64,000 nucleotides of DNA from Nitrospirota bacterium (GCA_016200255.1 JACQFA010000039.1:13678-77677), one strand, 5' to 3'; shown: positions 37,311 through 40,412, numbered from the stretch's first letter. Notes: a model not told the origin generated them from the letters alone. A program made the numbers and translations.

Positions 37311-37883
37311 CTACGCGGGCAGGCTTTTGGGGAAAGCACCTTCAAAGAAATTCCGTTCGGCATCGGTTAACACAATGCGCGACGAGGGGTCCGGCGGGAT
37401 GACCAAGACGGGAACGGCAGGCGGGCCGGCTCTGCGGCGGGGAACCCCGACTGGATCCAACAGCAGCGTCTGTTGATGTTCGAACCCAAGAACGCGATAT
37501 TGATAAAGTTCGATATCCAGACCCGTCAGGGCAACGGCTTCCTGAAAAACAGATGAAAAGCCGGGGGCGATCAAAACGACGCGGGGAGATTGAGACGACT
37601 CCGCCCCGCACTTGGAAAACAACCGGACCAGCAACGACCGGTGCCGGTTCAGCCAGCCGATCTGTCCGAGGGCCCTGACCAAGATCGCATCGTCTTCATG
37701 AAGGGTGGAAATCAACAGCACAAAACACCGATCCTGATCAATGGCCAGACAAAGCGGACCTGACTCGGAGCTCAAACCCGATTCCAGCAATTCTAGCCCC
37801 CCGGTCAGATCATCCAACTGGGTCAGGATCATGTTCTGAAGGACGGCGGGATCATGAAGAGAAACTCGATGCAGTTTCATCAT
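37311..37883 (-). CDS. Hypothetical protein, last gene of the ParA-like operon
   Basis: Translationally coupled to the upstream gene by an ATGA overlap. 190 aa with no confident domain. The segment GPLCLAIDQDRCFVLLISTLHEDDAILV is weakly roadblock/LC7-like. Confidence 0.5.
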   Translation of the reverse strand: MMKLHRVSLHDPAVLQNMILTQLDDLTGGLELLESGLSSESGPLCLAIDQDRCFVLLISTLHEDDAILVRALGQIGWLNRHRSLLVRLFSKCGAESSQSPRVVLIAPGFSSVFQEAVALTGLDIELYQYRVLGFEHQQTLLLDPVGVPRRRAGPPAVPVLVIPPDPSSRIVLTDAERNFFEGAFPKSLPA

Positions 37884-38824
37884 CCACCGATCATATCCAC
37901 GGTGCGTTGCAGACGGCCAAAAAACGAATAGGCGGTTCCCGACCGATTCGAGTCCCCCCCGACTCCCGCGAGCAGATTCCTCGCCACGCCTGAAAAACCG
38001 GCGGCGGCTTTCGAAGCCTGAGACAGAATGGTCAGAGGAACCTTCGCGGTCAAAGAACGCTCAATGAAGGGATCATCCGGAATCATCCCGTACCATTCCA
38101 GCGATTTTCCGAGAAATTGAAGGACCGCATCGCTCAATCGTTTCATGCCGGCCGCCGCCGCGGCCGCGTCACGATCTCCAAACACCACGAGCCCGATCCG
38201 GAGATCCTGTTGAAGCTGATACAAATACTTACAGACCTGATAGGTCTGCAAGAGCGTCTCGGAGTCCAGATCCACCGTCAGAACCACTCCCTGAACAAGG
38301 CGCACCCATCTCTGAAATGCGCCGCTCTCCTCATAAACGGCATGGATCAATATCAATTCGGCATCCTCTTCCTCCTTGCGAAGGACCTGCGAGAGAATAT
38401 CCCGCTCCTCCGCGGCGAATCCCTGAAGATCGTCCGATCGCAGTTGAAAGCTCAAGAGTTTCATTCCCAGGGGTCCTTCGACCGCGATCTGTTTCTGAGG
38501 CTGCTCCAGCAAGTCGTTGAGTGACGGATGGATCTGCACGGTTCCCAGCACCTCGTCCATCGACGGCACGGGCGCCGTTTCGATCGCCAATACGCGTTTG
38601 CCGGCCCGCGCCAATTCAACACCCAGGTTGGCCGTAAAAAAAGCCGACGGCCATCGAGGCACAAGGCTCATGGCCAGCCAAACCCGGGTATCGGATGTCG
38701 GTCGCTTCGCCTGTTTCCGAGCATCGGGCCGGGCCCGGTCCAGGGACGGAGCGGAAGAAACACCGGACAGAAACAGATGGGAAATGTCTTCGAGACCTTT
38801 CCCCAGTCTTTTTTTAGCACTCAT
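37880..38824 (-). CDS. Degenerate ParA/MinD-like protein lacking a Walker A motif, with a ParB-like N-terminal peptide
   Basis: The N-terminus MSAKKRLGKGLEDI resembles the ParB/Spo0J N-terminal ParA-activating peptide. Residues ~40-100 (WLAMSLVPRWPSAFFTANLGVELARAGKRVLAIE) align with ParA IAVINQKGGCGKTTTAINLSACLARLNRRVLLVD, but the P-loop is replaced. There is an ATGA overlap with the upstream parA-like gene. Confidence 0.55.
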   Translation of the reverse strand: MSAKKRLGKGLEDISHLFLSGVSSAPSLDRARPDARKQAKRPTSDTRVWLAMSLVPRWPSAFFTANLGVELARAGKRVLAIETAPVPSMDEVLGTVQIHPSLNDLLEQPQKQIAVEGPLGMKLLSFQLRSDDLQGFAAEERDILSQVLRKEEEDAELILIHAVYEESGAFQRWVRLVQGVVLTVDLDSETLLQTYQVCKYLYQLQQDLRIGLVVFGDRDAAAAAAGMKRLSDAVLQFLGKSLEWYGMIPDDPFIERSLTAKVPLTILSQASKAAAGFSGVARNLLAGVGGDSNRSGTAYSFFGRLQRTVDMIGG

Positions 38825-39723
38825 CCATTCGTCTCCGATTTAAAGACGGATCGTTTCGACGGATCCGTCAGGATTTCCTCGATCAGAATCGGTCCCAGGT
38901 ACTTTTCGGCCTCGTTTTCGTACAGTACCGACATCGTTTGAGCCGCGGTCGCGCCCACCGGCAGACTTTTTTCCAGCGCAACAACCTCCTGAGCCAGCGC
39001 GGCATAGTCCGCGGCGCCGTGGGCCCCGGGATCATACTCGGTGATCGGCAGCCCGTGGCTTGCGGCCTCGCGCAACCGGGTATTATTACGGATCACGGTT
39101 TTGAACGTACGCTCCGAAAAATGCCGCTGCACCTCGCCCAAAACCTCCCGGGTGAAACGCACGCGCAGGTTGACCATGGTCGCCAAGGCCCGAACCGTCA
39201 CTTCATGACCGGTATGCCGTGCCACGACATCCACGATCTCGATCAACTTGGCCAAACCATGCAGAGAAAAGAAACCCATCTCGACCGGAACGATGGCTTC
39301 ATCGCTGGCGCGCAACGCGTTGAAGGTCAGCAGGCCCAGACTCGGCGGCGAGTCGATGATGACATAATCATACGAGTGACGGGAAGATTGAATCGCGGAG
39401 AGCAACCGTTGCTCCTTCTGTGGAACGGAGCTTAAAAGCTGTTCGACCGAACTGAGGGTCACATTGGCGGGAGCGACGTCCAGGTTGGGACTGATCGCCC
39501 CGCAAATCACATCGTCGATGCAGGTTTCCTGCGTCAAGACCTCGGTCATCCCTTTCAAAAGATGCTCCGGTTTCAGATTCAATCCCAGGGACGCATGGCC
39601 CTGGGGGTCCAGATCCACCAGAAGCACCCGCCGGTTGAGCCGCGCGAGACAGGCCGACAGATTAATGGCCGTTGTGGTCTTGCCGCAGCCCCCCTTTTGA
39701 TTAATGACGGCGATCGTGCGCAT
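38821..39723 (-). CDS. ParA/MinD-family P-loop ATPase (deviant Walker A KGGCGKTT)
   Basis: MRTIAVINQKGGCGKTTTAINLSACLARLNRRVLLVDLDPQGHAS...; Walker B YVIIDSPPS. The start ATG is preceded by AAAGGAGGAG. The track ORF starts at an upstream TTG. Confidence 0.85.
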   Translation of the reverse strand: MRTIAVINQKGGCGKTTTAINLSACLARLNRRVLLVDLDPQGHASLGLNLKPEHLLKGMTEVLTQETCIDDVICGAISPNLDVAPANVTLSSVEQLLSSVPQKEQRLLSAIQSSRHSYDYVIIDSPPSLGLLTFNALRASDEAIVPVEMGFFSLHGLAKLIEIVDVVARHTGHEVTVRALATMVNLRVRFTREVLGEVQRHFSERTFKTVIRNNTRLREAASHGLPITEYDPGAHGAADYAALAQEVVALEKSLPVGATAAQTMSVLYENEAEKYLGPILIEEILTDPSKRSVFKSETNG

Positions 39724-39746
39724 CGGCTCCTCCTTTTTCAAAAGGA

Positions 39747-40226
39747 TTATGACGCCTGATCAATCTTTCGGGTCGGAGCATCTCTCCGCCGGACCTTCCG
39801 ATGCTTTTTAAGCTCCTCGACTCGCTTCTGCCATTTGTCGACGGACTGCCGAACCTCGGCCACTTCAACAATCCATTCCTGGCCGGAGATCGCTTCAAAA
39901 ACGGTTCCTTCATAAAAAACCAGGACCATATCGCCCGTTGCAACCAGCGTCAACTCGGCCAGCGGCCGCTTAATGGTGGGAAGGAGTCTTTGCAGGTGGG
40001 CGATGCTTTGGCGTATGCGTTGAACCGAGACGCCCGCATCCAATAATTTCTTCGCCGTCTTGAACGAAACGAGGTCCTGAAAGGTGTAGCGCGAATGCCC
40101 TCCGGGTGTTCGAAGACCCGGCTTGATCAGATCGGTCCGATCCCAGTGCTGCACCTGCCTCCGACTCAGACCAATGATCTCGCCGACCTCATGGGAGGTA
40201 AAAAAACCTTTTTCATGATTGCTCAT
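39747..40226 (-). CDS. MerR-family HTH transcriptional regulator with an uncharacterised C-terminal domain
   Basis: FFTSHEVGEIIGLSRRQVQHWDRTDLIKPGLRTPGGHSRYTFQDLVSFKTAKKLLDAGVSVQRI matches the MerR HTH. It is the first gene of the operon. Confidence 0.75.
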   Translation of the reverse strand: MSNHEKGFFTSHEVGEIIGLSRRQVQHWDRTDLIKPGLRTPGGHSRYTFQDLVSFKTAKKLLDAGVSVQRIRQSIAHLQRLLPTIKRPLAELTLVATGDMVLVFYEGTVFEAISGQEWIVEVAEVRQSVDKWQKRVEELKKHRKVRRRDAPTRKIDQAS

Positions 40227-40254
40227 TGATCGCCCATAAACCCGTCTTTTTGGT

Positions 40255-40290
40255 TAGGTATAATACGTCACAATTTAAATGTCAAGAAAA
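40255..40290 (-). promoter_or_regulatory. Putative promoter and operator in an AT-rich region upstream of the MerR-like gene
   Basis: Minus-strand cTTGACAtttaaattgtgacgtatTATACc has a consensus -35 and a palindromic ATTTAAAT core in the spacer. The region 40227-40412 is strongly AT-rich compared with the flanks. Confidence 0.4.
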
Positions 40291-40412
40291 AAGCACATTT
40301 TGTTGAAAAGATGTGTAAATTATAATCAGGCATTATATAACCAACTGTTTTATAACAAATAAAAACACTTAAAGATATGCACAGATTATTGTGGATATGA
40401 TTATGGCAACCG

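Follow-up and report, generated by a model that had tools for sequence, protein, structure and literature searches.

A conserved ParA operon pairing an FlhG-related pseudo-ATPase with an inactive NucS-like protein: a candidate positioning module with a new partner architecture

Introduction

ATPases of the ParA/MinD superfamily organise chromosomes, plasmids, division sites, flagella, chemoreceptor arrays and carboxysomes, and each new type of partner described for them so far has brought to light a previously unrecognized cargo and further rules of specificity. These partners generally act via a charged, disordered N-terminus, with the rest of the protein specifying the cargo (PMC10241942). 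In this manner the N-terminal peptide of ParB binds ParA and stimulates its ATPase activity (PMC7333895), and the N-terminal helix of FlhG activates the nucleoside triphosphatase (NTPase) FlhF (PMC12826062). Here, we analyze a four-gene operon on the minus strand of a 64,000-nucleotide (nt) stretch of DNA from a Nitrospirota bacterium (GCA_016200255.1 JACQFA010000039.1:13678-77677; hereafter the window), which encodes a MerR-like protein, a Soj-type ParA, a ParA-fold protein devoid of a P-loop (pseudo-ATPase), and a 190-residue (aa) protein related to the nuclease NucS.

Several described systems come close to this arrangement. Soj-Spo0J (ParABS) likewise combines a small Soj-type ParA with a partner carrying a basic N-terminal peptide of the LG[KR]GL..L type; here, however, neither a ParB (helix-turn-helix (HTH)/CTPase) nor parS is present, the peptide (hereafter the tag) is located on the pseudo-ATPase or on the NucS-like protein, and the ParA bears a KGGCGKT signature and usually a fused CBM48 domain. 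FlhG/FleN is the best match of the pseudo-ATPase in both sequence and structure. The two have in common a C-terminal amphipathic helix, an N-terminal extension that activates a partner NTPase (a role proposed here for the tag), and a partner with an EIDAL-type motif, reported to be necessary and sufficient for FlhG binding (bioRxiv 10.1101/2022.04.21.489128; see also PMC12826062). Unlike FlhG/FleN, the pseudo-ATPase lacks Walker A, so that no ATP switch is expected; its N-terminus reads KRLGKGLEDISHLFLS and is ParB-like where FlhG has DQAxxLR, its C-terminal helix is less basic, and neither flhF nor any flagellar context accompanies it. With NucS/EndoMS (DUF91), the 190-aa protein shares the alpha/beta core of the PD-(D/E)xK fold, but it lacks the catalytic D..E-x-K residues and the N-terminal domain for dimerisation and single-stranded DNA binding, and its family is acidic and always found beside ParA. 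McdAB, PomXYZ, ParC/ParP, and PpfA/TlpT follow the same positioning logic, with partners unrelated in sequence and fold to those encoded here. Partner genes diagnostic of Min, BcsQ, MipZ, or McdAB systems (mcdB with carboxysome genes, the bcs operon, minC/minE) are absent from the neighborhood within the window and from ~60 related loci, and no carboxysome, chemotaxis, or division genes lie near the module. Compared with orphan ParA/MinD systems, the present one has an additional pseudo-ATPase adaptor, a single tag for several clients, and a CBM48 domain on most of its ATPases; this domain resembles the CBM48 of AMPK beta and SEX4 and is confined to the ParAs of relatives, being absent from the ParA of the window. 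The locus is best compared with a ParA/MinD positioning system whose partner architecture, and probably also its cargo, is new.

Results

Related loci were assembled via homologue look-ups, a scan of one genome per GTDB species, and a scan of JGI metagenomes, and were analyzed by open reading frame (ORF) calling, BLAST, and tblastn, yielding ~60 loci (numbered with the prefix L). In the scans with a tag pattern, loci were inspected for 19 of the 82 matching genome stretches and for 27 of the 270 matching metagenome stretches. Dozens of independent contigs display this gene order, more than chance would produce, and the module was found in Nitrospirota, Zixibacteria, Omnitrophota, Rokubacteria, Acidobacteria, and other metagenome-assembled genomes (MAGs). 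An absence of conserved synteny, which the initial annotation of the locus had named as a possible refutation, is hence not what these genomes display.

Five gene orders were distinguished. Nitrospirota (window, L001, L004, L009-L011, L031-L035) harbor genes for the MerR-like protein, ParA, the tagged pseudo-ATPase, and the NucS-like protein. Zixibacteria-type loci (L002, L003, L006, L007, L012-L015, L036-L043) encode a DUF3467 protein, a ParA fused to CBM48 (ParA::CBM48), the tagged pseudo-ATPase, the NucS-like protein, and a GH57 branching enzyme, and in Omnitrophota (L016-L018) the succession of ParA::CBM48, tagged pseudo-ATPase, and NucS-like protein continues with a YfiH-like protein, a tagged DUF4912 protein, and a GH57 branching enzyme. 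Rokubacteria and Acidobacteria UBA6911 (L021, L024, L025, L050-L055) combine ParA::CBM48 with a tag fused directly to the NucS-like protein (tag::NucS-like), without any pseudo-ATPase. Other Acidobacteria (L026, L028, L029, L056) show tag::NucS-like followed by a ParA of 333 aa without CBM48, amid unrelated neighbors on contigs of 6.9 Mb and 516 kb. Variants comprise ParA::CBM48 followed by a tagged Cys-rich coiled-coil protein (L027), and ParA::CBM48 followed by a shorter or longer tagged pseudo-ATPase and the NucS-like protein (L020, L058). The pseudo-ATPase, absent in Rokubacteria and Acidobacteria, is an optional adaptor, whereas the core pair consists of ParA and the NucS-like protein, the latter being a near-universal partner of the former.

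The ParA of the window displays the ParA/MinD signatures, namely the deviant Walker A motif NQKGGCGKTT with its signature lysine, and the Walker A' and Walker B aspartates in VDLDPQ and YVIIDSPP. KGGCGKT is the signature of the subfamily, with C at the position where Soj has V. Among solved structures, ParA 8ray (5e-50) scores best, ahead of T. thermophilus Soj 1wcv (3e-42) and H. pylori Soj (5e-40), with MinD at 3e-18; the alignment with Soj/ParA structures extends over the full length, and the Arg of the NxRLxEA motif is retained (NTRLREA vs. NVRLSE in 8ray). It is 47-55% identical to the ParAs that adjoin tag-peptide genes of other phyla, and a C-terminal tail of ~45 aa occupies the place of the CBM48 domain of these relatives. 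No second deviant Walker A motif was found in the 64-kb window. The Soj-like ParA would form an ATP dimer and, like Soj, would probably bind the nucleoid.

The initial annotation had recognized a ParB-like N-terminal peptide on the pseudo-ATPase, and this peptide turned out to be the most conserved element of the system. Its consensus, [KR]xL[GA][KR]GLED[IV]SHLFLS, is nearly invariant down to 24% overall identity, and it always adjoins the same ParA subfamily: in 53 pattern-matched loci, the tag lies beside a KGGCGKT ParA or, at contig edges, beside the CBM48 end of one. Loci contain a single copy, as does the window, except in Omnitrophota, which contain two. Four unrelated types of protein carry the tag, the pseudo-ATPase, the NucS-like protein, the DUF4912 protein, and the Cys-rich coiled-coil protein. 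The N-terminal peptide of ParB follows the consensus LG[RK]GL..L[LF], and the tag reads LG[KR]GLEDISHLF. A comparison of the tag-bearing 30-residue N-terminus with PDB sequences gave no match, the query being too short, and no canonical ParB N-terminus is present in the 64-kb window or the related loci. Because no ParB sequence for direct comparison was found, the resemblance rests on the published and generally known motif. Conservation, portability, and strict adjacency to ParA fit a peptide that would dock on the ATPase and activate it.

At the P-loop position, the pseudo-ATPase reads SLVPRWPSAFFTANL, without GKT. GKGGxGKT is replaced by non-conserved residues in 20 of 20 aligned family members, down to 24% identity, and we therefore regard the protein as an ancient pseudo-ATPase; a true FlhG (P0051) keeps its P-loop at the aligned position. 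Library matches are restricted to CbiA in Pfam (0.0057) and archaeal MinD in NCBIfam (7e-8), both sub-threshold, and the sequence is 100% identical to the NCBI entry 'hypothetical protein HY283_05070 [Nitrospirae bacterium]'. The family profile retrieved FleN 5j1j (6e-34), FlhG 4rz2 (3e-33), MinD (3e-18), and Soj (1e-4) from the PDB. The AlphaFold2 model (predicted local distance difference test (pLDDT) 83; core residues 45-290 >90) has FlhG 4rz2 as its top Foldseek match, with a target-normalised template modelling (TM) score of 0.84. Two paralogous ParA-fold proteins had been proposed for this operon, one canonical (KGGCGKTT) and one lacking Walker A. Both proteins are indeed encoded, but close paralogy did not hold: direct BLASTP between ParA and the pseudo-ATPase yields E = 0.055 over 20 residues, and Soj-type proteins and FlhG/FleN belong to different branches of the ParA/MinD superfamily. 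Profile and model comparisons thus indicate that the pseudo-ATPase derives from FlhG/FleN, without close paralogy to the Soj-type ParA encoded next to it.

In the model, the first 43 residues of the pseudo-ATPase are disordered save for a short helix at residues 12-19, and a C-terminal helix (residues 301-313) follows a flexible linker. The SFFxxL motif of this helix hardly varies across the family; in the alignment it lies opposite QFFWKRLL of a true FlhG. Its hydrophobic moment amounts to 0.5-0.6, with few basic and often acidic residues, and the helix is absent from the short pseudo-ATPase homologue of L058.

These relationships raise the question of whether the module could have diverged from a named ParA/MinD system such as FlhF/FlhG, Min, BcsQ, McdAB, or Tad CpaE/TadZ. 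In JGI records, some homologues of the pseudo-ATPase go by the name 'flagellar biosynthesis protein FlhG' or 'MinD-like ATPase', and the Pfam families CBP_BcsQ and MipZ also match the ParA. However, the true FlhG P0051, encoded in the flagellar operon of L008, is the weakest match, keeps its P-loop, and has no tag; NCBIfam scores all lie far below cut-off, and apart from L008 no flagellar genes, and no min, bcs, carboxysome, or tad genes, occur in the ~60 loci. We consider such an origin very unlikely, and flagellar (FlhG/FlhF), Min, and BcsQ readings were rejected on the basis of gene context and motifs. In agreement with the initial annotation, neither ParB nor MinE nor any other known partner is encoded in the neighborhood within the window or in the related loci. 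Its statement that the operon matches no named system likewise finds support, as Pfam, NCBIfam, and PADLOC hold no family for the pseudo-ATPase or the 190-aa protein, and source databases name them 'hypothetical protein' or, generically, MinD/FlhG only.

The 190-aa protein, previously listed as an unknown, has a recognizable inactive NucS-like PD-(D/E)xK fold. Its AlphaFold2 model (pLDDT 78) consists of a single PD-(D/E)xK domain of ~148 residues and a tail, and the sole PDB match of the family profile is NucS (4e-4), covering NucS residues 128-187 only. No aligned member has the catalytic Lys. At the Glu position, I, V, N, or D is found, and in Nitrospirota the first Asp falls into a gap. Distant relatives keep LD..ELK, and the inactivation is therefore specific to this branch of the NucS/DUF91 superfamily. 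An exhaustive profile search retrieved 935 representatives at the 50% identity level, 412 of them below 1e-10, and every member named at its source is a 'hypothetical protein' from a MAG.

A nuclease fold combined with a P-loop ATPase is typical of defence systems, and with the HTH protein added, the operon could be read as an anti-phage defence or mobile-element module. PADLOC indeed returned weak matches, mad1 to the HTH (2e-8) and PDC-S18 to the PD-(D/E)xK domain (2e-6), but these concern the generic HTH and fold only, and the pseudo-ATPase has none. As the nuclease residues are lost family-wide, synteny within each phylum is stable and of a housekeeping kind, and base composition is unremarkable, we rejected this reading and regard it as the most remote of the explanations considered here.

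The tail of the NucS-like protein contains a motif reminiscent of EIDAL, which in FliM/FliY reads LSQEEIDALL, and the model predicts a short helix at tail residues 174-180. The tail pattern, L[TS]xEE[IR]xxF, is acidic-aromatic, and its forms include LTPEEIAEFM (Omnitrophota), LNEEEIAAFM (Zixibacteria), and ISDEELSALLE (L020). Each of the 15 'split-type' loci inspected has the tail, and none of the nine 'fused-type' proteins inspected does. Among ~183 full-length NucS-like members, 102 carry an N-terminal tag and end directly after the last beta-strand, 37 carry a C-terminal tail, none carries both, and 44 match neither pattern, these being in part variant tags or tails missed by the pattern and in part distant relatives with the catalytic motif. 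Every tail-bearing NucS-like protein at the inspected loci is preceded by the gene of a tagged pseudo-ATPase. Since tag and tail are mutually exclusive and the tail always follows a pseudo-ATPase, we infer a chain that runs from ParA via the tag and pseudo-ATPase to the tail and NucS-like protein. In the simplest reading of these sequence patterns, the tail would dock on the pseudo-ATPase, which would supply the tag in trans.

We therefore favor, with a probability of roughly 0.5, a ParA-type positioning module that would operate as a diffusion ratchet through this adaptor chain. The disordered, basic tag on the nucleotide-binding-dead pseudo-ATPase would dock on the ParA dimer and stimulate ATP hydrolysis. 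The pseudo-ATPase would in turn bridge to the dead NucS-like protein via the EIDAL-like tail, reusing the EIDAL binding of FlhG to FliM/FliY, as the mutual exclusivity of tag and tail suggests, and the NucS-like protein would mark or constitute the cargo. By analogy, the N-terminal activator position of FlhG may have been reused in the pseudo-ATPase as well.

A hint at the nature of this cargo, which the initial annotation had left unspecified, comes from the ParAs of relatives. CBM48/AMPK1_CBM is fused C-terminally to ParA in at least six lineages (Pfam 1e-10 to 4e-16), its carriers being Zixibacteria, Omnitrophota, Rokubacteria, Acidobacteria UBA6911, L020, L023, L027, and L058; it is missing only in the Nitrospirota and in one acidobacterial type of ParA. 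The Omnitrophota domain matches AMPK beta CBMs (7e-12), with FNNW, YKF.VDGQW, and IN in common, as well as SEX4/LSF1 and pullulanase CBMs. Among the shared positions are the Trp, Lys, Trp, and Asn with which AMPK beta contacts glycogen. The GH57 enzyme encoded after the module in Zixibacteria-type loci and Omnitrophota is matched by an NCBIfam model for 1,4-alpha-glucan branching protein (3e-163), below the equivalog cut-off. In a Rokubacteria lineage, a TreZ-like GH13 protein (CBM48, alpha-amylase, DUF3459; L024:1314-3116 / L055:251-2053) is encoded ~4.5 kb upstream of ParA::CBM48, which constitutes weak evidence. The same lineage carries a large helicase-nuclease gene (AAA_11/AAA_12 with MTES_1575 restriction endonuclease) downstream.

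On the basis of these fusions and neighbors, an alpha-glucan (glycogen) granule or its synthesis machinery is the best candidate for cargo or matrix of the family as a whole, and no more than a possible one for the CBM-less operon of the window. A stronger version, in which the family is a dedicated system for positioning and inheritance of glycogen granules and the Nitrospirota operon a CBM-less derivative under a MerR-type regulator, is put forward only tentatively. The nucleoid-riding ParA would then carry its own CBM48, and the tag would let NucS-like clients (via the adaptor) and DUF4912 clients tune the ATPase. Since the acidobacterial two-gene type is without CBM48, glycogen cannot be the defining feature of the family; the Nitrospirota version has lost the domain as well.

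The four genes of the window are co-directional (37311-40226, in the order MerR-like, ParA, pseudo-ATPase, 190-aa ORF), and their coordinates and junctions are summarized in Table 1. The tight minus-strand linkage described by the initial annotation, including the 23-nt gap between the MerR-like gene and parA with its ribosome-binding site AAAGGAGGAG and the ATGA stop/start overlaps at the last two junctions, was verified from the sequence throughout. The location of the ribosome-binding site and the MR(T/I)IA with which all homologues begin favor ATG 39723 as the start of parA; TTG at 39741, the start called by the ORF tool, is an in-frame alternative upstream. A block CACAT..ATGTG-TTTTTTC-TTGAC-N17-TATAA precedes the operon and is conserved in the Nitrospirota loci L001, L004, L009, L010, and L011. 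The generic promoter scan did not call this site, and the promoter assignment thus rests on conservation. The conserved upstream promoter block, the 3' hairpin, and a separate promoter downstream indicate that the four genes form a single transcription unit. As the exact palindrome CACAT-N12-ATGTG occurs once in the 64-kb window, it represents an operator-type site and not a centromere array.

The MerR-like protein contains a MerR-type winged HTH at its N-terminus (MerR_1, residues 9-76) and a conserved beta-rich segment (KRPLAELTLVATGD..GQEWIVEV) in its C-terminal half. NCBIfam matches concern the HTH only, all far under cut-off, and the protein is 63-86% identical across loci L001, L004, L009-L011, and L019. 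None of the loci from Zixibacteria, Omnitrophota, Rokubacteria, or Acidobacteria contains the gene. A MerR-type regulator had been proposed to head the system, which is correct for this operon but not as a defining part; being Nitrospirota-specific, the gene is accessory and therefore lies outside the definition of the system. Its product is probably a local regulator, which may autoregulate the operon via the CACAT-N12-ATGTG operator beside the -35 element. MerR-family promoters combine an operator with an over-long spacer of 19-20 bp, whereas here the spacer measures 17 nt and the palindrome lies upstream of the -35. In the Nitrospirota MAG Betzabe_MAG040 (L019:7495-8879), a MerR-like gene (63% identical) immediately precedes that of a 296-aa pseudo-ATPase whose tag is truncated (MPRRLEDVSHLFLG), and neither a ParA nor a NucS-like gene is adjacent. 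In Zixibacteria-type loci, the first operon position, equivalent to the slot of the MerR-like gene, is occupied by the DUF3467 protein of ~105 aa (L002:4512-4838 and equivalents), whose sequence resembles neither the MerR-like protein as a whole nor its C-terminal half.

These regulatory features bear on two further explanations. In the first, the pseudo-ATPase would act as a FleN-like anti-activator of the MerR-like factor, modulated by ParA and the NucS-like protein. FleN, to which the pseudo-ATPase is closest, binds and inhibits the transcription factor FleQ (PMC12826062); moreover, a conserved operator is located at the promoter, and L019 pairs the MerR-like gene and the pseudo-ATPase without ParA. 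Such a switch nevertheless appears improbable, given that the MerR-like gene is missing from all non-Nitrospirota versions, where ParA, tag, and NucS-like protein recur, and that the tag is also found on proteins without a link to transcription.

In the second, the operon would encode a DNA-directed, ParABS-type module, a second one for chromosome segregation or nucleoid organization, with the NucS-like protein (or, in Nitrospirota, the MerR-like protein, cf. RacA) as 'centromere' protein and the tag standing in for the N-terminus of ParB. Chromosomal Soj/ParA proteins are the closest relatives of the ParA, the tag mimics the LG[RK]GL..L motif of ParB, and PD-(D/E)xK folds are DNA-binding scaffolds. 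The MerR-like protein, strongly basic and at the head of the operon, weakly matches RacA and remains together with the pseudo-ATPase in L019. Against this, the NucS-like domains are acidic (pI, isoelectric point, 5.1-6.1), which argues against non-specific, though not against specific, DNA binding. Neither a repeat array nor a dispersed centromere-like site was found, the palindrome being unique in 64 kb; the MerR-like gene is absent outside Nitrospirota, and the CBM48 fusions as well as the GH57 and DUF4912 neighbors would be left unexplained. We hence judge a DNA-directed function unlikely, though less so than the regulatory switch. An intergenic search for centromere-like repeats yielded a 16-nt direct repeat after the last gene, which was rejected as it overlaps the conserved promoter of the next gene.

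Apart from the main gene orders, several tagged clients and lineages were recorded. The second tagged protein of Omnitrophota (L016:10523-11965, L017:7758-9230, L018:10592-12130) measures 480-512 aa, with the tag KKLGKGLEDISHLFLS around residues 40-56. It further comprises a lysine-rich linker, DUF4912 (1.5e-37), and a C-terminus resembling glucodextranase B; its gene sits between the YfiH/Cu-oxidase_4-like gene and that of the GH57 branching enzyme. The tagged client of L027 (L027:8001-8540), 179 aa in length, contains a Cys-rich segment and a coiled coil with a weak match to DUF7491, and no NucS-like gene is present at this locus. A distant lineage (L058:5107-7591, also L059) encodes a ParA::CBM48 of 365 aa, a tagged pseudo-ATPase of 248 aa, and a NucS-like protein with the tail VTDEEIEAFFEF, followed by a DEAD-box helicase fused to a Trans_reg_C domain.

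The surroundings of the operon were annotated as well. Downstream lie a Zn_ribbon_8 gene (36992-37210) and a Rieske [2Fe-2S] gene, syntenic in all Nitrospirota loci; the ORF called at 36661-37200 shows an overlap with the Zn-ribbon gene, and its homologues, 109-122 aa in length, point to a true start near 36990. Upstream (40413-41682) lie genes for a REG-2-like family IA HAD hydrolase (TIGR02252, 3e-54) and a DJ-1 glyoxalase III. Both accompany the module in Nitrospirota in conserved synteny, including L001, whose pseudo-ATPase is only 35% identical. With the start given by the ORF tool (41198), the HAD gene would overlap that of DJ-1; its homologues begin near 41132. Two further ORFs, 34713-35738 (341 aa) and 51888-53246 (452 aa), are without Pfam or NCBIfam match; the former has a signal-peptide-like N-terminus, and an unannotated 327-aa gene occupies the equivalent position in L004. 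A 586-aa protein with FecR and DUF6600 and a long proline-rich C-terminal tail is encoded at 43011-44771.

Table 1 Features of the ParA operon and its boundaries in the window.
Feature	Position	Strand	Remarks
Promoter with operator	40257..40315	-	-35 TTGACA 40285-40280, 17-nt spacer, -10 TATACC 40262-40257
Operator palindrome CACAT-N12-ATGTG	40315-40294	-	perfect; directly upstream of -35
MerR-type HTH protein, 159 aa	39747..40226	-	pI 10.1; Pfam MerR_1 6e-14, MerR 5e-7
Stop codon TAA of MerR-like gene	39749-39747	-	followed by exactly 23 nt to parA ATG at 39723
Shine-Dalgarno sequence AAAGGAGGAG for parA	39727..39736	-	read from sequence; within the 23-nt gap
Soj-type ParA, 300 aa	38821..39723	-	from ATG 39723; Pfam AAA_31 7e-54
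ParA stop / pseudo-ATPase start	38821-38824	-	overlap ATGA
P-loop-less pseudo-ATPase, 314 aa	37880..38824	-	FlhG/FleN-derived
Tag peptide KKRLGKGLEDISHLFLS, pseudo-ATPase residues 4-20	38765..38815	-	ParB-N-terminus-like; proposed ParA-docking, ATPase-stimulating element
C-terminal amphipathic helix SFFGRLQRTVDM, residues 301-313	37886..37924	-	positional equivalent of FlhG/MinD membrane-targeting sequence
Pseudo-ATPase stop / 190-aa ORF start	37880-37883	-	overlap ATGA
190-aa protein	37311..37883	-	no Pfam or NCBIfam match
Inactivated NucS-like PD-(D/E)xK domain, residues 1-148	37440..37883	-
Tail motif LTDAERNFFEG, residues 172-182 of 190-aa protein	37338..37370	-	EIDAL-like; proposed pseudo-ATPase docking site
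Weak hairpin GACCCGGTTGATTGGGTC	37278..37295	-	after last gene; operon end
Promoter-like TTGTAA-17-TAAAAT of Zn-ribbon gene	37277-37249	-	conserved in related loci

Discussion

Several observations weigh against the positioning module proposed here or against its link to glycogen. The NucS-like domain is mildly acidic (pI 5.1-6.1). The C-terminus of NucS itself binds the sliding clamp, and the tail of the 190-aa protein could likewise bind something other than the pseudo-ATPase. The 17-nt spacer of the operon promoter differs from the 19-20 nt typical of MerR-type activation. With respect to glycogen, the ParA of the window is without CBM48, a search of the ten largest ORFs of the window and of the flanks of the Nitrospirota loci yielded no glycogen gene, and the acidobacterial two-gene type, too, is without CBM48 and has unrelated neighbors. 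Moreover, with CBM48 on the ATPase itself, the classical geometry of a partner residing on the cargo is not obvious.

The ParA subfamily described here spans at least six bacterial phyla, almost all of them uncultured, and has been without annotation. Its FlhG-derived pseudo-enzyme adaptor shows a flagellar regulator rewired into a ParA circuit. The tag can be regarded as a natural 'luggage tag', a portable, nearly invariant and putatively ATPase-docking peptide common to unrelated clients, and thereby embodies a principle wanted for synthetic positioning systems.

In the searchable literature, outside of which many subscription papers lie, we found no report of a ParA-CBM48 fusion, of the tag peptide, or of a ParA system for glycogen, nor of any active bacterial system for glycogen distribution and inheritance. 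The CBM48 domain on the ATPase and the GH57 and DUF4912 neighbors provide a direct physical link of the ParA family to glycogen, and the active positioning of bacterial glycogen granules becomes a testable question. If the glycogen reading were true, this would be the first positioning system for a polysaccharide storage body in bacteria.

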